From: an uncultured Candidatus Binatia bacterium
GTDB taxonomy: Bacteria > Desulfobacterota > Binatia > Bin18
Length of the DNA: 64,000 nt
Direction of reading: 5' to 3'
Assembly (NCBI GenBank): GCA_965214605.1
Contig: OZ243961.1
Location: 3,872,001 to 3,936,000 of the forward strand
Shown here one piece after another: positions 13,486-22,157 of the stretch (position 1 is the first letter of the stretch; each line of letters begins with the position of its first letter). Position numbers and translations under genes: made by a program. The notes under the pieces were generated by a model. It was not told the DNA's origin. It saw only the letters and a program-made list of their open reading frames with translations, and did no database searches.

Positions 13486-14473
13486 CTAGATATGAATCCG
13501 CTCGATCTCATCCAGCGAGACCTCCTCCGGCAAGCGGTTGTAGAGTTGCGTCGTGCGGGTCAAGGCATGGCCCGCGATACGTGCCGCCGTCTCCAGCGTG
13601 CCCCCCGCCCGGAGATATTCGGTAATACCGGTGCCCCGGAAGCTGTGCGCGCAGACCTCAGCCGGCAACCCGGCACTCTTCGCACGCCGCTTAATCATCT
13701 TCAAGGCGTCGGTCCGGTCCATCGGCCGGCTGCTGAGGCGGTCAATACCCCGCTGTGTGCCAGCAGAGGGAAACAAGGGGCCTTTCGGGTCGGCCGCCAG
13801 GCCTGCGCGGTCTATGTAGTCATCCGTCCAGGCCTGCGCCCTATGGTGCGCGGGAAGGACCGGATACTTGCCGCCCTTCTCATGCAGCCGGAAGTAGGAC
13901 CGCTTGCCCTGGGTATAATAGTCGGCCACCCGCATCGCCAGCGCCGCGCTCACCCGCGCAAAGCCGTACACCATCAGGCCCAGCAACGCCCGATCCCGCA
14001 GCCCGATCAGCGTGGACGGGTCGATACGGTCAAGCAGGCCCCGCGCTTCTTCCGCCGTCAACACGGGGGTCTTGCCCGTTTTGATGATCTGTTTCGGACC
14101 ACGGACCGCCCCGGCCGGATTACTGCGCAGGACCTGGCCCACGACGAGCCAGGCAAAGAGCTGGCGCAAGGCGGCCAGATTTTGCTTCACCGTGGACGGC
14201 GCATACAGCCGCCCGAGCTGCTCGATGTAGCGGGCGACATGCAAGGGCTCGACCTGGGCCAAGGTGAGGGCTTGCGCCTCGCACCAGTCCGCGAAGCGGT
14301 AGGCCGCCGTGACGTAGGCCAGCCGGGTATTGGCATTGCGGATGTTCGCCCCAAAGAACTCCCAAAACCGCCGCTGGCCCTGGCGTGTCTCGGCAAAGAG
14401 CGCCGGGGCGCCCCCCCCCGCAATCCGGGCCGAAATCGGCGGGCGGCCCGCTTTCCACGATGTGCATCGTCAT
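13486..14473 (-). CDS. Tyrosine recombinase copy 2 (5' frameshift near the C-run at about 14415)
   Basis: R-K-H-R-H-Y catalytic motifs all in one frame (13486-14262); N-terminus in another frame. Confidence 0.85.
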
Positions 14474-14792: not shown

Positions 14793-15085
14793 CTACGCGG
14801 AGTGCCGCAACAGCTCGGCTAAGACTTGGCCCTGCCGCTCAAGCGCTTGGCCTTGCTGTGTGAACGCCTGGGTCATGGCCTCGCCCTGGCGGCGGAACGC
14901 CGCGGCCAGCTCATCAATTTCGCGATCCCGCCGCTGGCCGGATTCCTTCATGCACGCCAACCCGATCAGGATCGCCGCAAGCCCCGTGCCGCTGATGCCA
15001 AGCTGGACCACCTCGACCCAGTTCGTGCCCCCTGCGGCCACGGCCTGCAACTGTAAGGCGGTGACCGCCTCCCGTGCCAAGGGAC
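14793..15085 (-). pseudogene. Small TM + coiled-coil paralog, 5' end lost next to the IS630 remnant
   Basis: WVEVVQLGISGTGLAAILIGL..ALERQGQVLAELLRHSA. Confidence 0.55.
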
Positions 15086-15329
15086 CCGCTGAGCGCGCAG
15101 CAGATTGGGCAGGCCGGGGCGACCCTCCGGTTTCTCCCCCCATACAGTCCTGACCTCAATCCGATTGAGCTAGTCTTTGCCAAGCTCAAAGCGCTGGCGC
15201 GCGGCGGCGCCCACCGGGCCCGTGAGGACCTCTGGACATACCTTGGCTCCGTTGTATCGTGCTTCTCCCTAGGAGAATGTCAGCAGTACTTCCACCATTG
15301 TGGCTACACTGCATCGTGAAATGCTCTAG
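15086..15329 (+). mobile_element. IS630-family transposase 3' remnant with terminus
   Basis: FLPPYSPDLNPIELVFAKLK..ECQQYFHHCGY; ends AAATGCTCTAG. Confidence 0.8.
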
Positions 15330-15381: not shown

Positions 15382-15735
15382 TCAGTCCTGCGCCCAGTGC
15401 CACCGGACGCGACCGCGCCTGAACCAGAAATGCGATCCGCAACCTTTCTTGCGCCAAACTGAGGGATAAAGTGTCGCCGTCCCGTCGTCATGCCGTATTA
15501 GGCACCAGCAGGGAAGCTCATCAGGGAGCAGATTCATATGAAGCACTCGCCAGCAGCCGCACGGGCATAGCATCGCAGCCTGCTCATTGAAGCCGTCCTC
15601 TTGCACGATGTAGAGAGTACGTCGCCTGAGCTGGTCTGGTAGTGCTTCCTTGACGAGGACAGTCTGGTAGGTGGGGACGAACCAGTAGAAGAGCCGCTCT
15701 CAGACACGTCTAATGAGTCGGCGCAACCAGATCAC
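15382..15735 (-). pseudogene. DUF6527-family protein with premature stop
   Basis: VIWLRRLIRRV*ERLF..AAMLCPCGC..TLYPSVWRKKGCGSHFWFRRGRVRW; start overlaps the E1 stop. Confidence 0.75.
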
Positions 15736-17144
15736 ACTGACTGCCTTTCCGCCAGTGCTAGGAGCCCGAGAGGTGGGGTGCTATCGCCCTTGCCGACATT
15801 GTCGGCTAAAATCTCGCAGAGCCCGTCTTCGGCATCATATATTAGCTCCATGCTCGTGAGGCTGAAGGTAACAGAGGCGTAGTTGTGATTCGGTCCTTCA
15901 CGGAACGGATGAAGTCGCGCTAGGAACTCGTTGACTGCGAGTGAGGCTGCGAACATGTTGACACTAATGACCGCGGGACGGTGTGCGGCCACTCCGGAAA
16001 TATAGCCGTCCTTCCTCTACTGTTCGTGTGCGGTCGGATCGTTGCGTCGCAGGCCCGCGGCAGCCACATCGCTCATAGTGAACAGGCCCCGACTCATCAG
16101 GCTTGATCGCCCAGGCTGCAGGTAGTGAATCGTGCCGCAAATTTCGTGAATATCCGCTTTATCAGTACCTCGCGGCATAGGTTTAAGCCGAACCCCGAGG
16201 TCGAAATACGGCAAGGTGTAATGCGTGGCGAGAACATTCAGCAGATAGCGGCCGTCGATGGTATCCATGCAACCGAATATGACGTCGCACTGCGCCACGG
16301 CACGCACAACTTCCGGATCCCAGAGATTCCGATTCATGCGGATGACCCGCGTCCCTAGACCCATACGTTCAATGGCGTCGGCCAGTACATCGACCTTGGC
16401 ACGGTTTTGCGCTATGTCTTTCAGTGTTGAGTTCAGAATGCGATTGACGTTGCGGTCTTCCATATGATCCTCATCGACGATTACGATCTCCCCGACGCCA
16501 AGCCGTACAAGTTGCTCGATAACAGGGCTCCCCGTACCCGAAGCGCCAATTACGGCAATCGATAAGCGCCGCAAGCGCTGAATAGTACCTTCATCGAATA
16601 TCTGGGCGTGTGAGGCTACGAAACTCGGTATGGCCACATCACCAGCAGCGCGTACCAGAAATGCAGATCATCGCCTGCGACGCTGATACACTCGACTGGT
16701 TCGAGAACGTTGCCGGAGCGAAGCACGCGCCCAAACATCTGCCCGTCGGGCAGTATAATGGCACTCCCGTGCAGGATATCGGCTTCGATACAGTCACGGA
16801 TCATCGGTATCAGCCGGGCATCGCCCTCATCGTCTGTTGCTGAAAAAGCGGGATAACCGGTCGGATGGCTATGTATCTTGATAATCGAAAAGCCTTCCTC
16901 GGTTGAACGGTCCGGTACGGACGCGATGCAGTCGGGCGACCATGTCACGAGCGTCGGGGTTCTTCTTGAGCATTGATTATAGGGGATGCAGTGGATGTCG
17001 CGAACGGTCAGACGATGACGACGCTCACCAGCGCGGCTGGCGCAGAGGAGCAGGGCAACAGCCTCTTTACCATCACCAGGGAAAAAAACTTGTCAGACGT
17101 TCATACTGATCACCTGATAATGCAAGGGTTACCGGCGCGGTCAT
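15732..17144 (-). pseudogene. JAB deubiquitinase-like + ThiF/E1 fusion, disrupted
   Basis: PGDGKEAVALLLC; IHSHP..FSATDD (JAB); GASGTGS, NVNRI, GCMD (E1). Two frameshifts and a TAG at 16017. Confidence 0.8.
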
Positions 17145-17510
17145 TTCTCGAACTCTCGTTCTAACCAGTCCTCAATCAACATGATATGCGTTCCCAGGTG
17201 GTCCTGGCCGATTTTCCACGAATTCTGCGGCGTGCGATGACGAGACCAACGCTGGTAGCTCTTCCCATCGATTTTCTGTGCTGCGTTAGTTGCACCTATT
17301 GGTTTGCCGTCTTTCCGTGCCAGAGCCGGGAAGAAGTAGACCATGTTCAGCTCCGTATTGGGGTAGCCGGTTTCCATGCGGATTGCCGCTGTAACAAGCG
17401 GATGGTTGTATCCTTCGTGTGTCTGGAACTCGTGAATCAGCACCCACTGAGAGCCATCGATAATGGTCTCCCAGTGGGTGCCATATTCGTCGAGAAACTC
17501 ACGGTCCTGT
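17141..17510 (-). pseudogene. Prokaryotic E2 family E (ubiquitin-conjugating-like), 5' truncated
   Basis: DREFLDEYG..WETI..EGYN..GYPNTELNMVYFFPALARKDGKPI..YQRWSRHRT; stop overlaps the JAB-E1 ATG. Confidence 0.75.
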
Positions 17511-17981
17511 GAGGGAGATATCTTCTCACGACAGGCCGCAGATTCCGCTTTGGATATCAAGACTCCGCTCAAGCTCGCGAAAAAGTTCGGTGCCTCGCTC
17601 TATGCGTCGATACGCGAATTCGTCCGGACCAACCACAGGGCATGTGCTGTCTATGTCCTGGAGCCACTCAAATTTGTCGAAGGAGCGGGCGCACAGGCAG
17701 TGGTTCGGCGTATTGAAACTTCATCCGCGTTCATCACGCAGTTCGGGCAGCCTGCCGATACTGTGGTCACACCCGCCCATTCTCTGTGGCCGGTGATACC
17801 GATCAAACGCAAGATGGTCCGGCCCGTTTCGCTCTCTATTACCGACAAAAACGGTGAAGCCCACGAATGTGTCGCCGAGGCGTTCGACACCACCTATAAT
17901 GTCCTCATTTTACTCTATCCTGAAAAAGCACTCACGTCCAAGACGATTACACTCTCGCCGAGGTCAAGAGCCGGTTACTGA
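17510..17981 (+). pseudogene. C-terminal part of an ImmA/IrrE (CapP-like) metallopeptidase
   Basis: PLKLAKKFGASLYASIREFV HTH followed by a GAF-like tail; the HExxH region is missing. Confidence 0.55.
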
Positions 17982-17988
17982 CGGCCGA

Positions 17989-19122
17989 TTATCCAGTTAG
18001 ACGGGGGTTACCGATATCTCGTTCCCACGTGGCGTATTCGCGGGGCTGTTGCCAGAAGGATTGCCACGCCTCGTTGAGGGTACCACCGACGGACAATTCT
18101 GGGGCCGATCCATCAAAGACAGTGCAGCCGATAGCGGTAGCTCCTTGTGTGGCATGTCCCGCAATGGCGTCAAGGACATGCGAGGGATAACGCCGGTCGT
18201 ACTCAGGAATGGCCTGGACACCAAGATGGTGGAGCACTGTCGCCCACTTATCACGGATGGTGGCTGCCACCGACCCGTGTCCAATGTGCTCCAGTACCCG
18301 CAGCATAACTCCCATTCGAGCTGCATCCGCCGGATGGGTAGACGCCATATAGCGGGGCACGAGGTACGGGTCCTCGGTAAATCCAGCGCAGAGATGTAGA
18401 TGTGACCAGGCGAACGCTGGCCCAAGTGTATAGGTTGCGAACACGTCACAGAAGAACTCCGTCAACCAACTCTCCCATGAGCCGCTCCAAGCCGTGAGAT
18501 AACGTTGGTAGCTCTGCGGCCTACTCCCACGGTTCTCTTTATCCAATTCCGCGCTGACATACTGAAGGACGTGAGAGAGAGCAATGTGAAAAGCGCGTTG
18601 CCACGCCTCTACCCGTGGGTCATGGCGCGCGTCGAACAGTAAGTGAGCCAATTCATGATAGAGGTCCGGAAAATGCAGCAGAAAGCGCCCTTCTGCAAGG
18701 GGAATGACAATCAGGTTCCACGGAGTGTACGTGTGATAATAAGCGCCCCGAGGCGATGTGCAGGAAACGACTGGAACCGGGAGTGGAAAGTTGATCTCTT
18801 GGCAAATCTTTCCGGCTAATCGATTTGCCTGGGTATCAATGTCGCTCCACCGATGAAGTGCGGCGACGACGACGGACTCCTGAATTTCGAGATCTTCAAC
18901 TGCGCGACGATAGCGACGCAGTCTCAAGGCCTGGGTCTCTCCTGTCGCAAACCCTGTATGCTCGACAAGAAATTCGAGACGGACCTGGAGATCAGTCAGC
19001 TCCTCTTGGCACTTCATGATGAGAATATCAAGGTCGCGCCCTTGATCTCTGGGAACCATGTCGAGGAGATGGTTCGCTCGGGCCTGGAGATGTGATATGG
19101 CGCCGTCCAAATATTCCTTCAT
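17989..19122 (-). CDS. HExxH zinc-metallopeptidase-like protein, Argonaute-operon associated
   Basis: LYHELAHLL, WLTEFFCDVFA..LGPAF, THP..AARM; helical N-terminus; start overlaps the upstream stop. Confidence 0.75.
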   Translation of the reverse strand: MKEYLDGAISHLQARANHLLDMVPRDQGRDLDILIMKCQEELTDLQVRLEFLVEHTGFATGETQALRLRRYRRAVEDLEIQESVVVAALHRWSDIDTQANRLAGKICQEINFPLPVPVVSCTSPRGAYYHTYTPWNLIVIPLAEGRFLLHFPDLYHELAHLLFDARHDPRVEAWQRAFHIALSHVLQYVSAELDKENRGSRPQSYQRYLTAWSGSWESWLTEFFCDVFATYTLGPAFAWSHLHLCAGFTEDPYLVPRYMASTHPADAARMGVMLRVLEHIGHGSVAATIRDKWATVLHHLGVQAIPEYDRRYPSHVLDAIAGHATQGATAIGCTVFDGSAPELSVGGTLNEAWQSFWQQPREYATWERDIGNPRLTG

Positions 19123-19481
19123 CGAAGAGCCGCGCTTCTCATCTTCAGAGCCATATCCGACAAGTCTCTGTCCAAGTCTCGGGCTAAGGACTCTAGTTCG
19201 GCCTTCACATCTTCACTGTCTTTTGCATCGCGAAGTTTACAGGCTATCCTTCGCCACGCGCCCTCATCTACACTACGCCTGAGAAGGCCTCTGACCTGGA
19301 TGTCAGCAAGGTCGGGATCGGCATTATCCGCGAGCCGATCTAGCTCGTCGGCGAGCTTCTGGATGTCTTCCTGGTAGTTTCCTTCACCTTCCGTCAAGAG
19401 TCCCAGCAGGACGTTGTCAAGAAGATCACTAAACTCTCGCACATGTGCATATCGACTCGCATAGATTCCTGTATCGCTCAT
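19119..19481 (-). CDS. Small acidic all-helical protein, Argonaute-operon associated
   Basis: SD GAGGAGG; ATGA overlaps on both sides; no family recognised. Confidence 0.75.
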   Translation of the reverse strand: MSDTGIYASRYAHVREFSDLLDNVLLGLLTEGEGNYQEDIQKLADELDRLADNADPDLADIQVRGLLRRSVDEGAWRRIACKLRDAKDSEDVKAELESLARDLDRDLSDMALKMRSAALR

Positions 19482-20979
19482 CCTGTTTCCTCCTCAATAG
19501 TGTACTCGGCGGGGACGAAGGCCGCCGGATCAAATTCACCAGCGTCACGCCGGAGAAGGCGATCATTCATCCGCAACGTGATTGGTTGTCGGCTGCACGT
19601 CCCTGGTTGGGTCCAAGCAAGACAGGACAGGAAAAAACATCCTCCGCAATTGTGTCCATTTCTCCATTACCGACAATTCTTTGGATATGTAAAGGATTCG
19701 CCGTTCCGTGGAATGAGAATGGCCACCCCGTTGTCGCGAGGTATCCTTCATTGTTGTCGGTCTGTAGCCAAGTGCCGATAGCGGGATTTACTATTCTAGA
19801 TTGATCGTTTCCATGGCGGAGTTCCGCATACAGGCGCATCGGTACCATGTTGTGTTTGCCAATCTCGACAACGGAGACATCTGCGGTGTCGGTGAGTAGG
19901 TCTTGCGACTTGAGAAAGTCTACCGCCTTGAGAATCCCACGACGTTCGCTATCAAACAAACGGCCATCGCGGTGAATCGTAACGGACTGTATCGCATGGT
20001 GTTGTGACGCGGACTCGGAACGCACGATCTCGACGAGGGAATGGGCCGCTTCTTCAGGCATGAGCTTTTCTGTCTGCCGAATACTCTGGGTCTCGAATCG
20101 GACCTGTGTCCCATATCCGCTGATAGCAAGCAGGCCGCAGAGCCCATTCTTCACATCAATACCGACGATCATTTCAGTATGGGTCGGGTCTGATAGGACA
20201 AACGGCCAGTGTCCGTTGTTGAGGAAGATGTGGTTCAGGGCAACATTCCGCAGATAGCCACGGCGTTTTCCGCGCCTACGTTCATCTGCTCTGTAGCGCC
20301 AGGTGCCATCGTTGTCCTTTTCCGCTCGATAACAAGGACGAGTCGACTCAGCATGAATCACGGCTGCATACAGCTCGAACTCGTCACGGAGTTGCCGAGT
20401 CAGGTAGGCAGCCAATGGATCTTCCTTTCGAGCCTCTCTACCGGGGCTCTCATGAACCATAACAAGAGCGTGGGCCGGCTCTGGTTTTGCTTGTCTGATG
20501 GCTTCTAGGATATATTCAGCCTGGCGCGCGAGACGCCTATTCCCTGTGTCATCGTAGACAATAATCTCCGGCCGATAGCCGTGATGGCCGGCGTACAGAC
20601 GACGGACTTGGTGATCCAGATTCTCGATAAACTGTTCGCCGTAGGTGTCCATAACACTGTGCGGCAATATAGCATACTGCCGCGCTAACGGATCATTGCT
20701 GTAGATTCCCGCTTCTCTGGACTCCAGCATCCGGATTCGCTGTTGCCCCCATTCTGGGAACTGACAGAAGTGCGAGGCGGAATCCCGTCGTACGGAGAGA
20801 GTCTTGTTTTGTCCAAAACGGAGATCAGGTACCAGAAACCTACGTGTTCGCCCCCGGACCCCCTGGTCCGCTAGCAAGAGCCGCACCCCATCAATTTCGA
20901 GACGATTGAGGTAACGTGAAACAGCCGCCCGACTCCGCCCCAGCCGCTCCTCTGGTTCAATGAGCGTGGCCGCCACCAA
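19478..20979 (-). CDS. ago: Prokaryotic Argonaute (L2-MID-PIWI), N-terminally truncated, frameshift at about 19635
   Basis: PDLRFG (L2); IVGIDV, QTEKL, TIHRDG; one extra T restores LSCLAWTQP..SRQPITLRMND..., giving a DEDD-like tetrad. Confidence 0.85.
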
Positions 20980-20986
20980 GTACTCT

Positions 20987-21134
20987 ATGCCGGAGCGGAT
21001 CGACGCCGCACCGGAGCGGCTAGCGGAAGTCGTACTTGGCGTAAAGCCTAAGAACCACTGGGATTATGAGGCCGCGACGGGGCGGACACGGACGCGGCAA
21101 TCGGGTTGATTTTGGTACACAGGTCTATAATTCC
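20987..21134 (+). mobile_element. Possible IS remnant: 40-aa ORF (20987-21109) and terminus-like TATAATTCCC at the island edge
   Basis: MPERIDAAPERLAEVVLGVKPKNHWDY resembles small ORFs I recall beside IS1595-type transposases; unverified. Confidence 0.3.
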
Positions 21135-21152
21135 CTTTCGAAAAGTCCTGGC

Positions 21153-22157
21153 TCATGAGCCAGGACGCCGGGCGACTTCCGGAACCTCTAGTATAATCTT
21201 GCCGAAATTCCGGTTGTCTTCCATGTACCGGTGAGCCTCGGCAGCTTGGGCTAGTGGAAAAACCGTATCAATAATCGGTTTGATTTTTCCCGCTGTGAGC
21301 AGCGGCAGCCAGTTTTGCTTAAAGCGCTTGGTGATTGCAATTTTCTCCTCAAGTGTGCGGCTGCGCAGCACCGAGCCGAAGATCTGGAGTCGTTTGGTCA
21401 GAATCAGACCTAGATTGGTCTCAACTTTCACCCCGCCCATCACCCCGACCAACACCAAACGGCCGCCGATCTTCAAGCTGCGCAGGTTCTTGTCCCAATA
21501 CGCCGCGCCGATGAAGTCCTCAATGACGTCCACGCCTTGTCCCTGAGTCAGCCCGCGGACCCACTCGGCAAAATCCTGGTCTTTATAGTTGCAGCCTACC
21601 TCCGCGCCGAGTTCGACACAGCGCCGAATTTTATCCGCAGATCCGGCGGTAATCAGAATCCGCGCGCCCCTCTCCCGAGCCATCTGGATGCCGGCCGTCC
21701 CCACCCCGCTCGCTCCAGCGTGGATCAGAATGGTCTCACCGGCGTTGAGACCGCCTAGGGTAAAGATCGTTTCTTGGGCGGTGAGGTAGACCTCGGGCAC
21801 TGCGGCGGCTTGGCTAAAGCTCCAGCCGTCCGGGATAGGTATGGCCATCCGCGCGTCAATGACGGCCTTCTCGGCATAACCGCCGCTCCCAACCAGACCA
21901 AAAACACGGTCGCCTAGCCCAAAGTCGTGCACGGCTGAACCGACCGCTTCCACCTCACCGGCCAGTTCCAGACCTAGGATGTCTGATTCTCCGGGTGGTG
22001 GCGGGTAGGCGCCGATACGCTGCATGGTATCGGCACGGTTGAGGGCAGAGGCGCGGACCCGAACGAGCAGTTGATTTGGGCTCGGGGCCGGGTCGGCGAC
22101 ATCGGTAAGCCCTAAGACCTCAGGTCCACCGGGTTTTGTAAAAGTGATAGCTTTCAT
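21153..22157 (-). CDS. NAD(P)H-quinone oxidoreductase, PIG3 family
   Basis: LNRADTMQR.GAYPPPPG..ILGLE; HAGASGVG; GKIIL. Confidence 0.9.
   Translation of the reverse strand: MKAITFTKPGGPEVLGLTDVADPAPSPNQLLVRVRASALNRADTMQRIGAYPPPPGESDILGLELAGEVEAVGSAVHDFGLGDRVFGLVGSGGYAEKAVIDARMAIPIPDGWSFSQAAAVPEVYLTAQETIFTLGGLNAGETILIHAGASGVGTAGIQMARERGARILITAGSADKIRRCVELGAEVGCNYKDQDFAEWVRGLTQGQGVDVIEDFIGAAYWDKNLRSLKIGGRLVLVGVMGGVKVETNLGLILTKRLQIFGSVLRSRTLEEKIAITKRFKQNWLPLLTAGKIKPIIDTVFPLAQAAEAHRYMEDNRNFGKIILEVPEVARRPGS

Follow-up and report, generated by a model that had tools for sequence, protein, structure and literature searches.

Can an Argonaute work together with a peptidase? This question is raised by a minus-strand locus at positions 17989–20979 of a 64,000-nt stretch of DNA (in the following referred to as the window) from an uncultured Candidatus Binatia bacterium (assembly GCA_965214605.1, contig OZ243961.1, positions 3,872,001 to 3,936,000). 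Here the open reading frame (ORF) of a prokaryotic Argonaute (pAgo) with a PIWI domain is followed by two further ORFs, which encode a small protein of 120 amino acids (aa), termed S, and a protein of 377 aa with a HExxH motif, termed M. A preliminary description of the DNA had proposed this trio as a candidate undescribed pAgo defence system. We found that window positions 17989–20973 are what is left of a mobile pAgo operon of five genes, and that S and M accompany the respective pAgo superclade almost constantly, their co-divergence with Ago being at least as tight as that of the operon's nuclease. Taken together, we regard the identity of the locus, its decay and the partnership of S and M with this superclade as very nearly certain.

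A decayed pAgo operon in the window

The three minus-strand ORFs are located at the positions given in the preliminary description (Table 1), and both ATGA overlaps reported there are present: the start codon of M lies inside the stop codon of S at 19119–19122 (TCGATGAAGG) and, after correction of the Ago frame, the start codon of S lies inside the stop codon of the second Ago frame, in a 4-base overlap at 19478–19481 (AGGATGAGCG). A near-identical intact operon from a Binatia genome (loci L001/L006), which encodes a 794-aa Ago followed by S and M with overlaps as in the window, shares 3463 bp with window positions 17512–20973 at 98.35% identity. In a global alignment with L001 the window Ago is short by one base within a T-run (Table 1), which puts the final 62 codons, and with them the fourth catalytic Asp, out of frame. 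The frameshift suspected earlier is thus real; the damage to the gene had nevertheless been understated, since Ago is truncated at its 5' end as well. The PADLOC pAgo_II model matches the window Ago (E 5.4e-135) with positions 294–739 of 782 only, the Ago profile of its own clade with positions 305–752 and 749–801 of 804, and the homology shared with the intact L006 ends at 20973, with nothing retained upstream of Ago codon ~297. In fact, the domains N, L1, PAZ and most of L2 are gone, the catalytic DEDD tetrad is broken (the fourth Asp lies past the frameshift and the N-terminal half of the protein is missing), and the helix-turn-helix (HTH) regulator and the Cas4-like PD-(D/E)XK nuclease encoded upstream in relatives are absent. 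Regulator and nuclease were lost by a deletion together with some 300 codons at the start of Ago; a 1-base deletion then broke the C-terminus of Ago, and the window Ago is a pseudogene of its family.

Four more distant loci from Planctomycetota and Binatia (M 35–43% identical) contain five genes in a row, encoding a ~130-aa Xre-type HTH protein, a 312–315-aa PD-(D/E)XK nuclease, an 808–812-aa Ago, S and M. Rather than a self-standing system of three genes, as initially proposed, the window carries the decayed tail of this five-gene operon. The nuclease of the relatives matches Aga_Cas4-like_Nuc of PADLOC ('Class II', E 2.5e-114) and has no solved relative in a sequence search of known structures; the HTH protein gives a weak PADLOC match to capH (E 6.9e-6). 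In two Binatia loci M is followed by a 1140–1158-aa protein (L004, 9188–12610; L005, 7052–10528) with RNase_H-superfamily and SF1 helicase domains and MkoA/MkoC-like PADLOC matches. A profile search of the host genome of the window (4.37 Mb, 99.99% complete) yielded neither a second M nor a second Ago of this clade, and the locus, a decayed leftover that matters little to this genome, is therefore most likely inactive here.

Among solved structures, PliAgo comes closest to the Ago (7R8F-K, E 1e-108, full length), and the intact 794-aa orthologue aligns to residues 4–776 of 7R8K (E 8.5e-109). D569, E598, D632 and D767 are invariant across five intact Ago orthologues, and their columns align with D563, E592, D626 and D762 of PliAgo, given as its catalytic tetrad in the published text (Lisitskaya et al. 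2022, PMC9360449). According to the same text, the PliAgo and PnyAgo groups comprise pAgos with a DEDD tetrad that use DNA guides and cut RNA, an activity reported in vitro for PliAgo, RslAgo, PnyAgo and a fourth protein; their natural function is called an open question there, and the operons are described with a Cas4-like PD-(D/E)XK nuclease ahead of Ago and with an HTH gene in the PliAgo group or a sigma-70 gene in the PnyAgo group. PADLOC-DB 2.0.0 holds this operon as pAgo_II + Aga_Cas4-like_Nuc ('Class II'). Judged by its sequence, the window Ago is a member of the PliAgo group of RNA-cutting, DNA-guided pAgos. The PliAgo match and the conserved DEDD residues thus identify it as a pseudogene from a known class of pAgos with catalytic activity, which sets it apart from the inactive sensors among short and long-B pAgos.

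Association of S and M with the pAgo

In a survey seeded with Ago we found 11 distinct loci, one of which is cut at a contig end; S and M are encoded directly downstream in the other ten (10/10). For a survey seeded with M, a profile of 28 sequences was run against 185,579 species genomes and matched 148 loci, the best 80 of which were examined; two of these with <500 bases of upstream sequence were set aside, leaving 78 evaluable loci. A strong Ago match (E<1e-100) on the same strand directly upstream of M is present in 71 of the 78 (in four of them with the Ago in pieces), and none of the 78 has M in an unrelated genomic setting. Such a recurrence of the order Ago-S-M in loci from many phyla is far beyond chance. 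S was detected by profile between Ago and M in 78 of the 80 loci, the other two showing a gap of ~400 bp at its position, and where the sequence extends at least 4.5 kb upstream (63 loci), the nuclease is present in 61 and the HTH gene in 62. The remaining seven evaluable loci (L021, L068, L070, L071, L072, L083 and L093), which stem from KSB1, Latescibacterota (three), Bacteroidia, Caldilineaceae and Gemmatimonadota and thus from at least five phyla, have only an Ago fragment (three loci) or no Ago (four loci). As stubs of the nuclease or of Ago are left in four of the seven, these loci are read as deletion derivatives that have arisen several times.

An even sample of 401 Bacteroidota genomes gave eight M matches, six of them strong and all located in operons of the order nuclease (Nuc)-Ago-small ORF-M (one of the six is very divergent, with E 4.6e-33 for M and 7e-25 for Ago); the two weak matches are partial and lie in other proteins. 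On plasmids, a pAgo is found near M in eight of eight cases (five bacterial and three haloarchaeal). The expectation that homologues of the partner genes neighbour pAgos thus held in each of these samples (71/78, 6/6 and 8/8). All five bacterial plasmids encode Nuc-Ago-S-M. The regulator is an HTH protein on Runella slithyformis pRUNSL03 and the Rhizobium sp. L51/94 plasmid, and sigma-70 with a ~180-aa protein on the Emticicia and Spirosoma plasmids, whose layout is of the PnyAgo type and whose Ago is recognized by the second of the pAgo_II models of PADLOC (E 1.7e-215); no regulator is visible on the Aphanizomenonaceae plasmid. The Ago of the Runella slithyformis plasmid is annotated as 'hypothetical protein' and is presumably RslAgo, so that the RslAgo-bearing plasmid has the arrangement HTH-Nuc-Ago-S-M.

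On the three haloarchaeal plasmids (L095, L098 and L118) an M homologue follows an overlapping ORF of 148–150 aa. The relationship is supported by an hhalign probability of 98.6% (tested on the Halosimplex protein) and by the motifs HEVAH, ELFCD and HPPD. On the two of these plasmids that were scanned with PADLOC, a pAgo matching its PprPIWI model is adjacent and convergent (full length, E 2.7e-119 in Halorientalis); on the Natrinema plasmid the pAgo lies a few kb off and is matched by our own clade profile (E 7e-33). The Cas4-like nuclease is absent from the haloarchaeal loci. The 148–150-aa ORF was considered as a counterpart of S and dismissed, given no detectable homology (hhalign probability 0.3%). 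Two of the three loci have a DNA polymerase sliding-clamp gene and DUF6166 on the other side. No M homologues were found in phage records, nor by a pattern scan of IMG/VR.

For 55 complete operons we compared pairwise distances and obtained Spearman correlations of 0.78 (Ago-M), 0.73 (Ago-S), 0.70 (M-S) and 0.69 (Ago-Nuc), and of 0.36–0.47 for pairs with the HTH protein (M-HTH 0.44). These values show inheritance as a unit without shuffling and are not a proof of co-evolution. They also bear on the possibility that M is a regulatory protease that cleaves the operon's Xre-type HTH protein or sigma-70 partner and so switches the operon on, like CapP/CapH or ImmA/ImmR, with S as inhibitor or sensor and with Ago exerting no control over M. 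HTH/zinc-peptidase pairs are common regulators of defence operons, a transcription factor heads every operon type (the HTH protein with its capH match, or sigma-70 with the ~180-aa protein), and HTH, S and M were kept together in all seven loci that lost nuclease and Ago. However, the HTH gene is not adjacent to M, M has no Peptidase_M78 match, the divergence of M follows Ago far better than the HTH protein, and the M family remains constant while the type of regulator changes. The HTH profile had no match in the two haloarchaeal loci scanned; among the haloarchaeal plasmids, an annotated HTH gene lies ~1 kb off on the other strand in one locus and a MarR gene ~3 kb off in another. Finally, M was seen only beside this pAgo superclade, whereas generic regulator pairs move between systems. 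A purely regulatory role of M therefore seems rather unlikely to us.

Conserved motifs and predicted fold of M

Scans with Pfam, NCBIfam and PADLOC assigned M to no family at E≤0.1, Peptidase_M48, M78 and U49 of Pfam included; Atlas look-alikes labelled U49 or M48 score only 0.78–0.79. A sequence search against solved structures returned coiled-coil noise only, for M as well as for S. In a profile search of 1.84 billion representatives the M family comprised 1136 clusters at E≤1e-3, of which 295 remained at E≤1e-30. The members listed are nearly all 370–400 aa long, and the named matches are all annotated as 'hypothetical protein', none of them with a Pfam domain. The motifs HELAH, EFFCD and THPAD noted in the window M are indeed there, and they are strongly conserved: H156, E157, E222, H263 and P264 do not vary among 107 diverse members, H160 and D226 occur in at least 90%, and HE..H is present in 228 of 229 full-length members. 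Thermolysin and neprilysin share this succession of HExxH, ExxxD and a later His, which is characteristic of gluzincins.

The AlphaFold model of M (pLDDT 96.7, pTM 0.94) combines a three-helix bundle (residues 1–92) with a mixed domain that contains a small sheet of three strands. Since the list of structural matches (VIA) for the whole protein was swamped by the N-terminal bundle, residues 93–377 were modelled alone (pLDDT 96.5). Searching 48,161 chains with this domain, most of the rows listed are zinc metallopeptidases, namely BepA (M48, Z 8.6, 140 aligned residues), Zmp1 (M13, Z 8.2, 183 residues), PepO (M13, Z 8.0, 174–180 residues), neprilysin (M13, Z 7.9, 180 residues) and ZMPSTE24 (M48, Z 7.2, 159 residues). 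Minigluzincins, LTA4H and thermolysin rank lower, the families M48, M13, minigluzincin, M1 and M4 together spanning Z 5–8.6, and values up to 8.6 lie in the 'middling' range of the tool's own scale. Foldseek returned no match at E≤1e-3, either for the whole of M or for the domain alone. Given moderate Z-scores and an empty Foldseek result, the assignment of a zincin fold is supportive and not proven. The gluzincin/M48-like layout recognized in the preliminary description agrees with the invariant motif set and the zincin-like fold model, and M is in our view probably a gluzincin-type zinc metallopeptidase. Reading the roles from the motif, the metal would be coordinated by His156, His160 and, as third ligand, Glu222 (of ExxxD), with Glu157 serving as the base and His263 as an auxiliary residue.

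Alternatively, M might not be a peptidase at all but a zincin-like scaffold or another hydrolase, which together with S loads or processes guides or assembles the Ago-nuclease complex. Such a role would fit the missing sequence family and the moderate Z-scores, and known pAgo accessory proteins are described as acting on nucleic acids in the published main texts (PMC12094033, PMC10620215). On the other hand, HExxH, ExxxD and the downstream His are (near-)invariant in 107 members, which is hard to explain without catalysis, and metallopeptidases account for most rows of the fold search, so that we hold this alternative to be improbable.

Among the metagenomic M homologues, P0123 has a C-terminal CHAT (caspase-like) domain (E 4.3e-9), P0136 shows a weaker CHAT match (2.4e-4, under the Pfam cut-off) and P0145 ends in a tail of ~400 residues that contains another HExxH-like stretch and is matched by no Pfam family.

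Protein S and its predicted complex with M

The window S is acidic, as described before, with an isoelectric point (pI) of 4.58 and 27 D+E compared to 18 K+R; the median pI of the family is 5.39. S has a length of 117–124 aa in 78 loci, and its counterparts in the sigma-70-type operons are 128–145 aa long with the same conserved ends. In an alignment of 57 members the N-terminus (MSDxG....Y) is conserved, M1 being invariant and S2 and Y11 present in at least 90%, as is the C-terminal motif LExLA...ER. No Pfam, NCBIfam or PADLOC family was found for S. A match to the HVO_A0114 family (E 0.0034) occurred in only 1 of 57 members and was treated as chance, and matches to DpdJ are far under the cut-off.

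We predicted the complex of M, S and zinc with our own alignments and with three controls. The interface score ipSAE was 0.65, 0.65 and 0.67, compared to 0.00 in all three controls, with a contact agreement of at least 81% between the runs and a partner pLDDT of at least 78. In the calibration of this score the mark is reached by 58 of 80 solved complexes and by 2 of 110 mismatched pairs, which is only roughly valid for own alignments and an added ligand. The most confident contacts place residues 15–33 and 100–119 of S on the M helix 55–84; the i, i+3/4 pattern of contacts suggests that S is helical. Further contact residues of M are 127, 129–134 (edge strand), 160, 163–166, 175–182, 214–222 and 262–263, stretches that cover the helices bearing HExxH and the Glu as well as the conserved His. 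These predictions favour the small protein as the partner of M, as had been supposed, and it appears quite probable that S binds M. From the model we infer that the conserved N-terminus of S is accommodated in the cleft of M.

A small acidic upstream protein and a larger downstream protein joined by an ATGA overlap also correspond to the layout of a type II-like toxin-antitoxin module. M would then be a toxic protease and S its antitoxin, stabilizing the island or acting in autonomous abortive infection with no mechanistic tie to Ago. The predicted binding of S to M, touching catalytic-site residues, is in line with this, and so is the finding that S-M outlives Ago in 7 of the 78 loci and in the window. 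However, every M of the loci examined is accompanied by a pAgo or what is left of one, while such pairs usually turn up in many different contexts; the gene order is tight and divergence parallels that of Ago, no toxin-antitoxin family of PADLOC or Pfam was matched, and the local copy gives no sign of purifying selection. We hold a module of this kind to be improbable as the explanation.

A possible mechanism and its weighing

As the best explanation of the whole we propose a decayed five-gene operon in which S and M act together as a metallopeptidase module that is gated and coupled to the pAgo, a proposal in which we place slightly more trust than doubt. Gating of M by Ago, taken by itself, is put forward tentatively, its chances lying a little below even. 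S would dock on the N-terminal helical bundle of M and reach the catalytic cleft as a plug or first substrate, and this docking would keep M latent. The Cas4-like nuclease would supply DNA guides for the pAgo, a role modelled on ACE1, which makes the guides in APACE1 according to the published main text (PMC12094033). Activity of the pAgo on invader RNA would then most likely relieve the block by S, and the released M would cleave a protein target. The leading candidate for this output is the operon's own transcription factor, i.e. the HTH protein or sigma-70 with its ~180-aa partner. We prefer gating by Ago over the other explanations because M is found only with this pAgo superclade, because it tracks Ago closer than it tracks the HTH protein, and because it persists when the type of regulator changes and when the nuclease is absent. 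A chain leading from Ago to M, S and the transcription factor would reconcile gating with the facts that favour the alternatives.

Several points weigh against this proposal. PliAgo-type pAgos cleave the RNA target themselves in vitro, as far as described in the main text of PMC9360449, so that an extra effector is not obviously needed. All seven Ago-less loci keep a compact HTH-S-M row with an intact M, and S-M can therefore persist, perhaps even act, without a pAgo. The survey seeded with M rests on the best 80 of the 148 loci, and the fold evidence for M is limited by the middling Z-scores and the empty Foldseek result. The other contact residues of S, 1–12 and 55–65, are not paired to individual catalytic residues of M in the output of the prediction. 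Finally, the intact ORFs of S and M in the window do not amount to a sign of function; compared to L001, the window M (97% identical) has 2 synonymous and 11 non-synonymous changes (pN/pS about 1.7), the window S 2 synonymous and 4 non-synonymous changes. These small counts show no purifying selection, the local copy may be drifting, and the intactness of S and M in the window is best explained by recent decay.

RNA-cutting, DNA-guided pAgos have so far been studied as isolated in vitro enzymes and as tools. In the genomes, no other partners accompany them as faithfully as the two unnamed proteins S and M, which are kept across >10 bacterial phyla and through a change of the regulator type, M even in haloarchaeal loci without the nuclease. 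M carries every sequence hallmark of a zinc peptidase, and S is predicted to sit on it. Should the mechanism indeed involve a peptidase, these operons would be the first Argonaute systems coupled to a protease, and work on Ago alone would have missed the output of the pathway.

Surroundings of the locus

Just downstream of M lies a decayed ubiquitin-like conjugation cluster (15382–17572, minus strand; Table 1). Multiubiquitin and ThiF genes (and DUF6527) flank the same pAgo operon in L001 and on the Runella and Spirosoma plasmids. We considered these genes as a part of the system and rejected this, because only 13 of 80 loci have a ThiF-type gene within 10 kb, on either side; they are probably a defence-island neighbourhood. 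The IrrE/ImmA-like fragment that converges with M has an intact counterpart in L001 (9142–10504, minus strand; 311 aa, E 1.9e-5), located after an HTH gene as a CapH/CapP-like pair. Compared to L001, a deletion of ~1.4 kb at 17511/17512 removed the HTH gene, the N-terminus of the peptidase and the multiubiquitin gene from the window. The ORFs for an integrase and a putative transposase end fit a mobile, decaying island.

Table 1. Features of the pAgo locus and of its neighbourhood (window coordinates)
Feature	Position	Strand	Remarks
Tyrosine recombinase/integrase ORF	13486–14262	-	Phage_integrase, E 4.7e-18
Short ORF, putative DDE transposase end	15074–15319	+	Read from translation only
DUF6527	15382–15606	-	E 1.2e-19
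ThiF/E1, split	16017–16637	-	Adjacent frame 15732–15992 (no Pfam match) probably the displaced C-terminal part
JAB, partial	16616–16948	-	
Prok-E2_E	17141–17572	-	E 1.6e-41
IrrE/ImmA-like Peptidase_M78, C-terminal fragment	17463–17981	+	172-aa ORF convergent with M
M	17989–19122	-	Intact 377-aa ORF; putative member of an unnamed gluzincin-like metallopeptidase family
Domains of M	residues 1–92; residues 93–377		N-terminal three-helix bundle; catalytic-type domain with H156-E157-x-x-H160, E222-x-x-x-D226 and H263-P264
S	19119–19481	-	Intact 120-aa acidic ORF; predicted binding partner of M
pAgo, C-terminal 62 codons in shifted frame	19478–19666	-	Includes the fourth catalytic Asp position (RMND); ends in the ATGA overlap with S
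pAgo remnant, MID-PIWI	19567–20973	-	~Residues 297–745 of the intact 794-aa orthologue; the PIWI ORF itself is 19567–20979
T-run with 1-base deletion	19632–19637	-	Upstream of the fourth catalytic residue; global alignment to L001
Deletion or island boundary	20974–21152	none	Rest of Ago, Cas4-like nuclease and HTH gene of relatives absent
Putative quinone oxidoreductase-like ORF	21153–22157		Housekeeping-type; name read from translation only

Comparison with known systems

The nearest published systems are the PliAgo/PnyAgo (D-R) operons, which belong to the same pAgo clade and whose upstream HTH or sigma-70 gene and Cas4-like nuclease are shared by the intact relatives of the window locus; in the window copy, by contrast, the regulator, the nuclease and the N-terminal half of Ago are gone. 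The published main text names regulator, nuclease and pAgo only and makes no mention of S or M, although Fig. 1b or the supplements may draw unnamed genes (PMC9360449). PADLOC class II likewise has no model for S or M. Thus the trio is new in part: S and M match none of the described systems in the PADLOC scan and the literature, but the first three genes of the operon are published and contained in PADLOC. As far as the literature was searched, the S-M pair is undescribed and no protease-coupled pAgo was found, in agreement with the preliminary description; the figures and supplements of PMC9360449 and PMC6299218 may hold these genes as unnamed orthogroups.

Long-A pAgos with the Cas4-family proteins ACE1 or ACE2 form the APACE systems (Bobadilla Ugarte et al. 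2025, PMC12094033), where a Cas4-family nuclease is likewise encoded directly upstream of an active pAgo. With 312–315 aa, the nuclease of the relatives resembles ACE2 (313 aa on average), a likeness by length only. As described in the main text, APACE1 has two genes and no peptidase, and APACE2 is uncharacterised. In the long-B systems BPAN, BPAS and BPAM (Song et al. 2023, PMC10620215) a pAgo is likewise encoded together with effectors, and target recognition switches on an enzyme; in that publication's text, however, the pAgos are catalytically dead and the effector (a RecB2 nuclease, Sir2 or a membrane protein) is located downstream. The conserved DEDD tetrad, the upstream Cas4-like nuclease and the downstream S and M rule out that our locus is one of these systems. 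With the gluzincins of M48 (BepA, ZMPSTE24), M13 (neprilysin, Zmp1, PepO) and M4 (thermolysin), M shares HExxH, ExxxD and the later His as well as Z-scores of 7–8.6 over 140–183 residues, but it has no sequence-family match to them and is a soluble protein of 377 aa with its own three-helix bundle and a dedicated small partner.

A guide-directed, RNA-targeting enzyme that is encoded with a protease is found in type III-E CRISPR, where gRAMP-TPR-CHAT ('Craspase') occurs with the small protein Csx30 and the sigma factor RpoE. The likeness of pAgo-S-M to this system is one of analogy only; a few M proteins carry a CHAT domain, and the proteins are unrelated. It is conceivable, though on balance unlikely, that the D-R pAgo operons are the Argonaute counterpart of Craspase, in which RNA recognition frees M from S, or M cleaves S, and the product hits the HTH or sigma-70 regulator or host proteins and leads to a transcriptional or abortive response. 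If so, M and S would be the conserved signalling core of a pAgo superclade that includes the haloarchaeal PIWI proteins.

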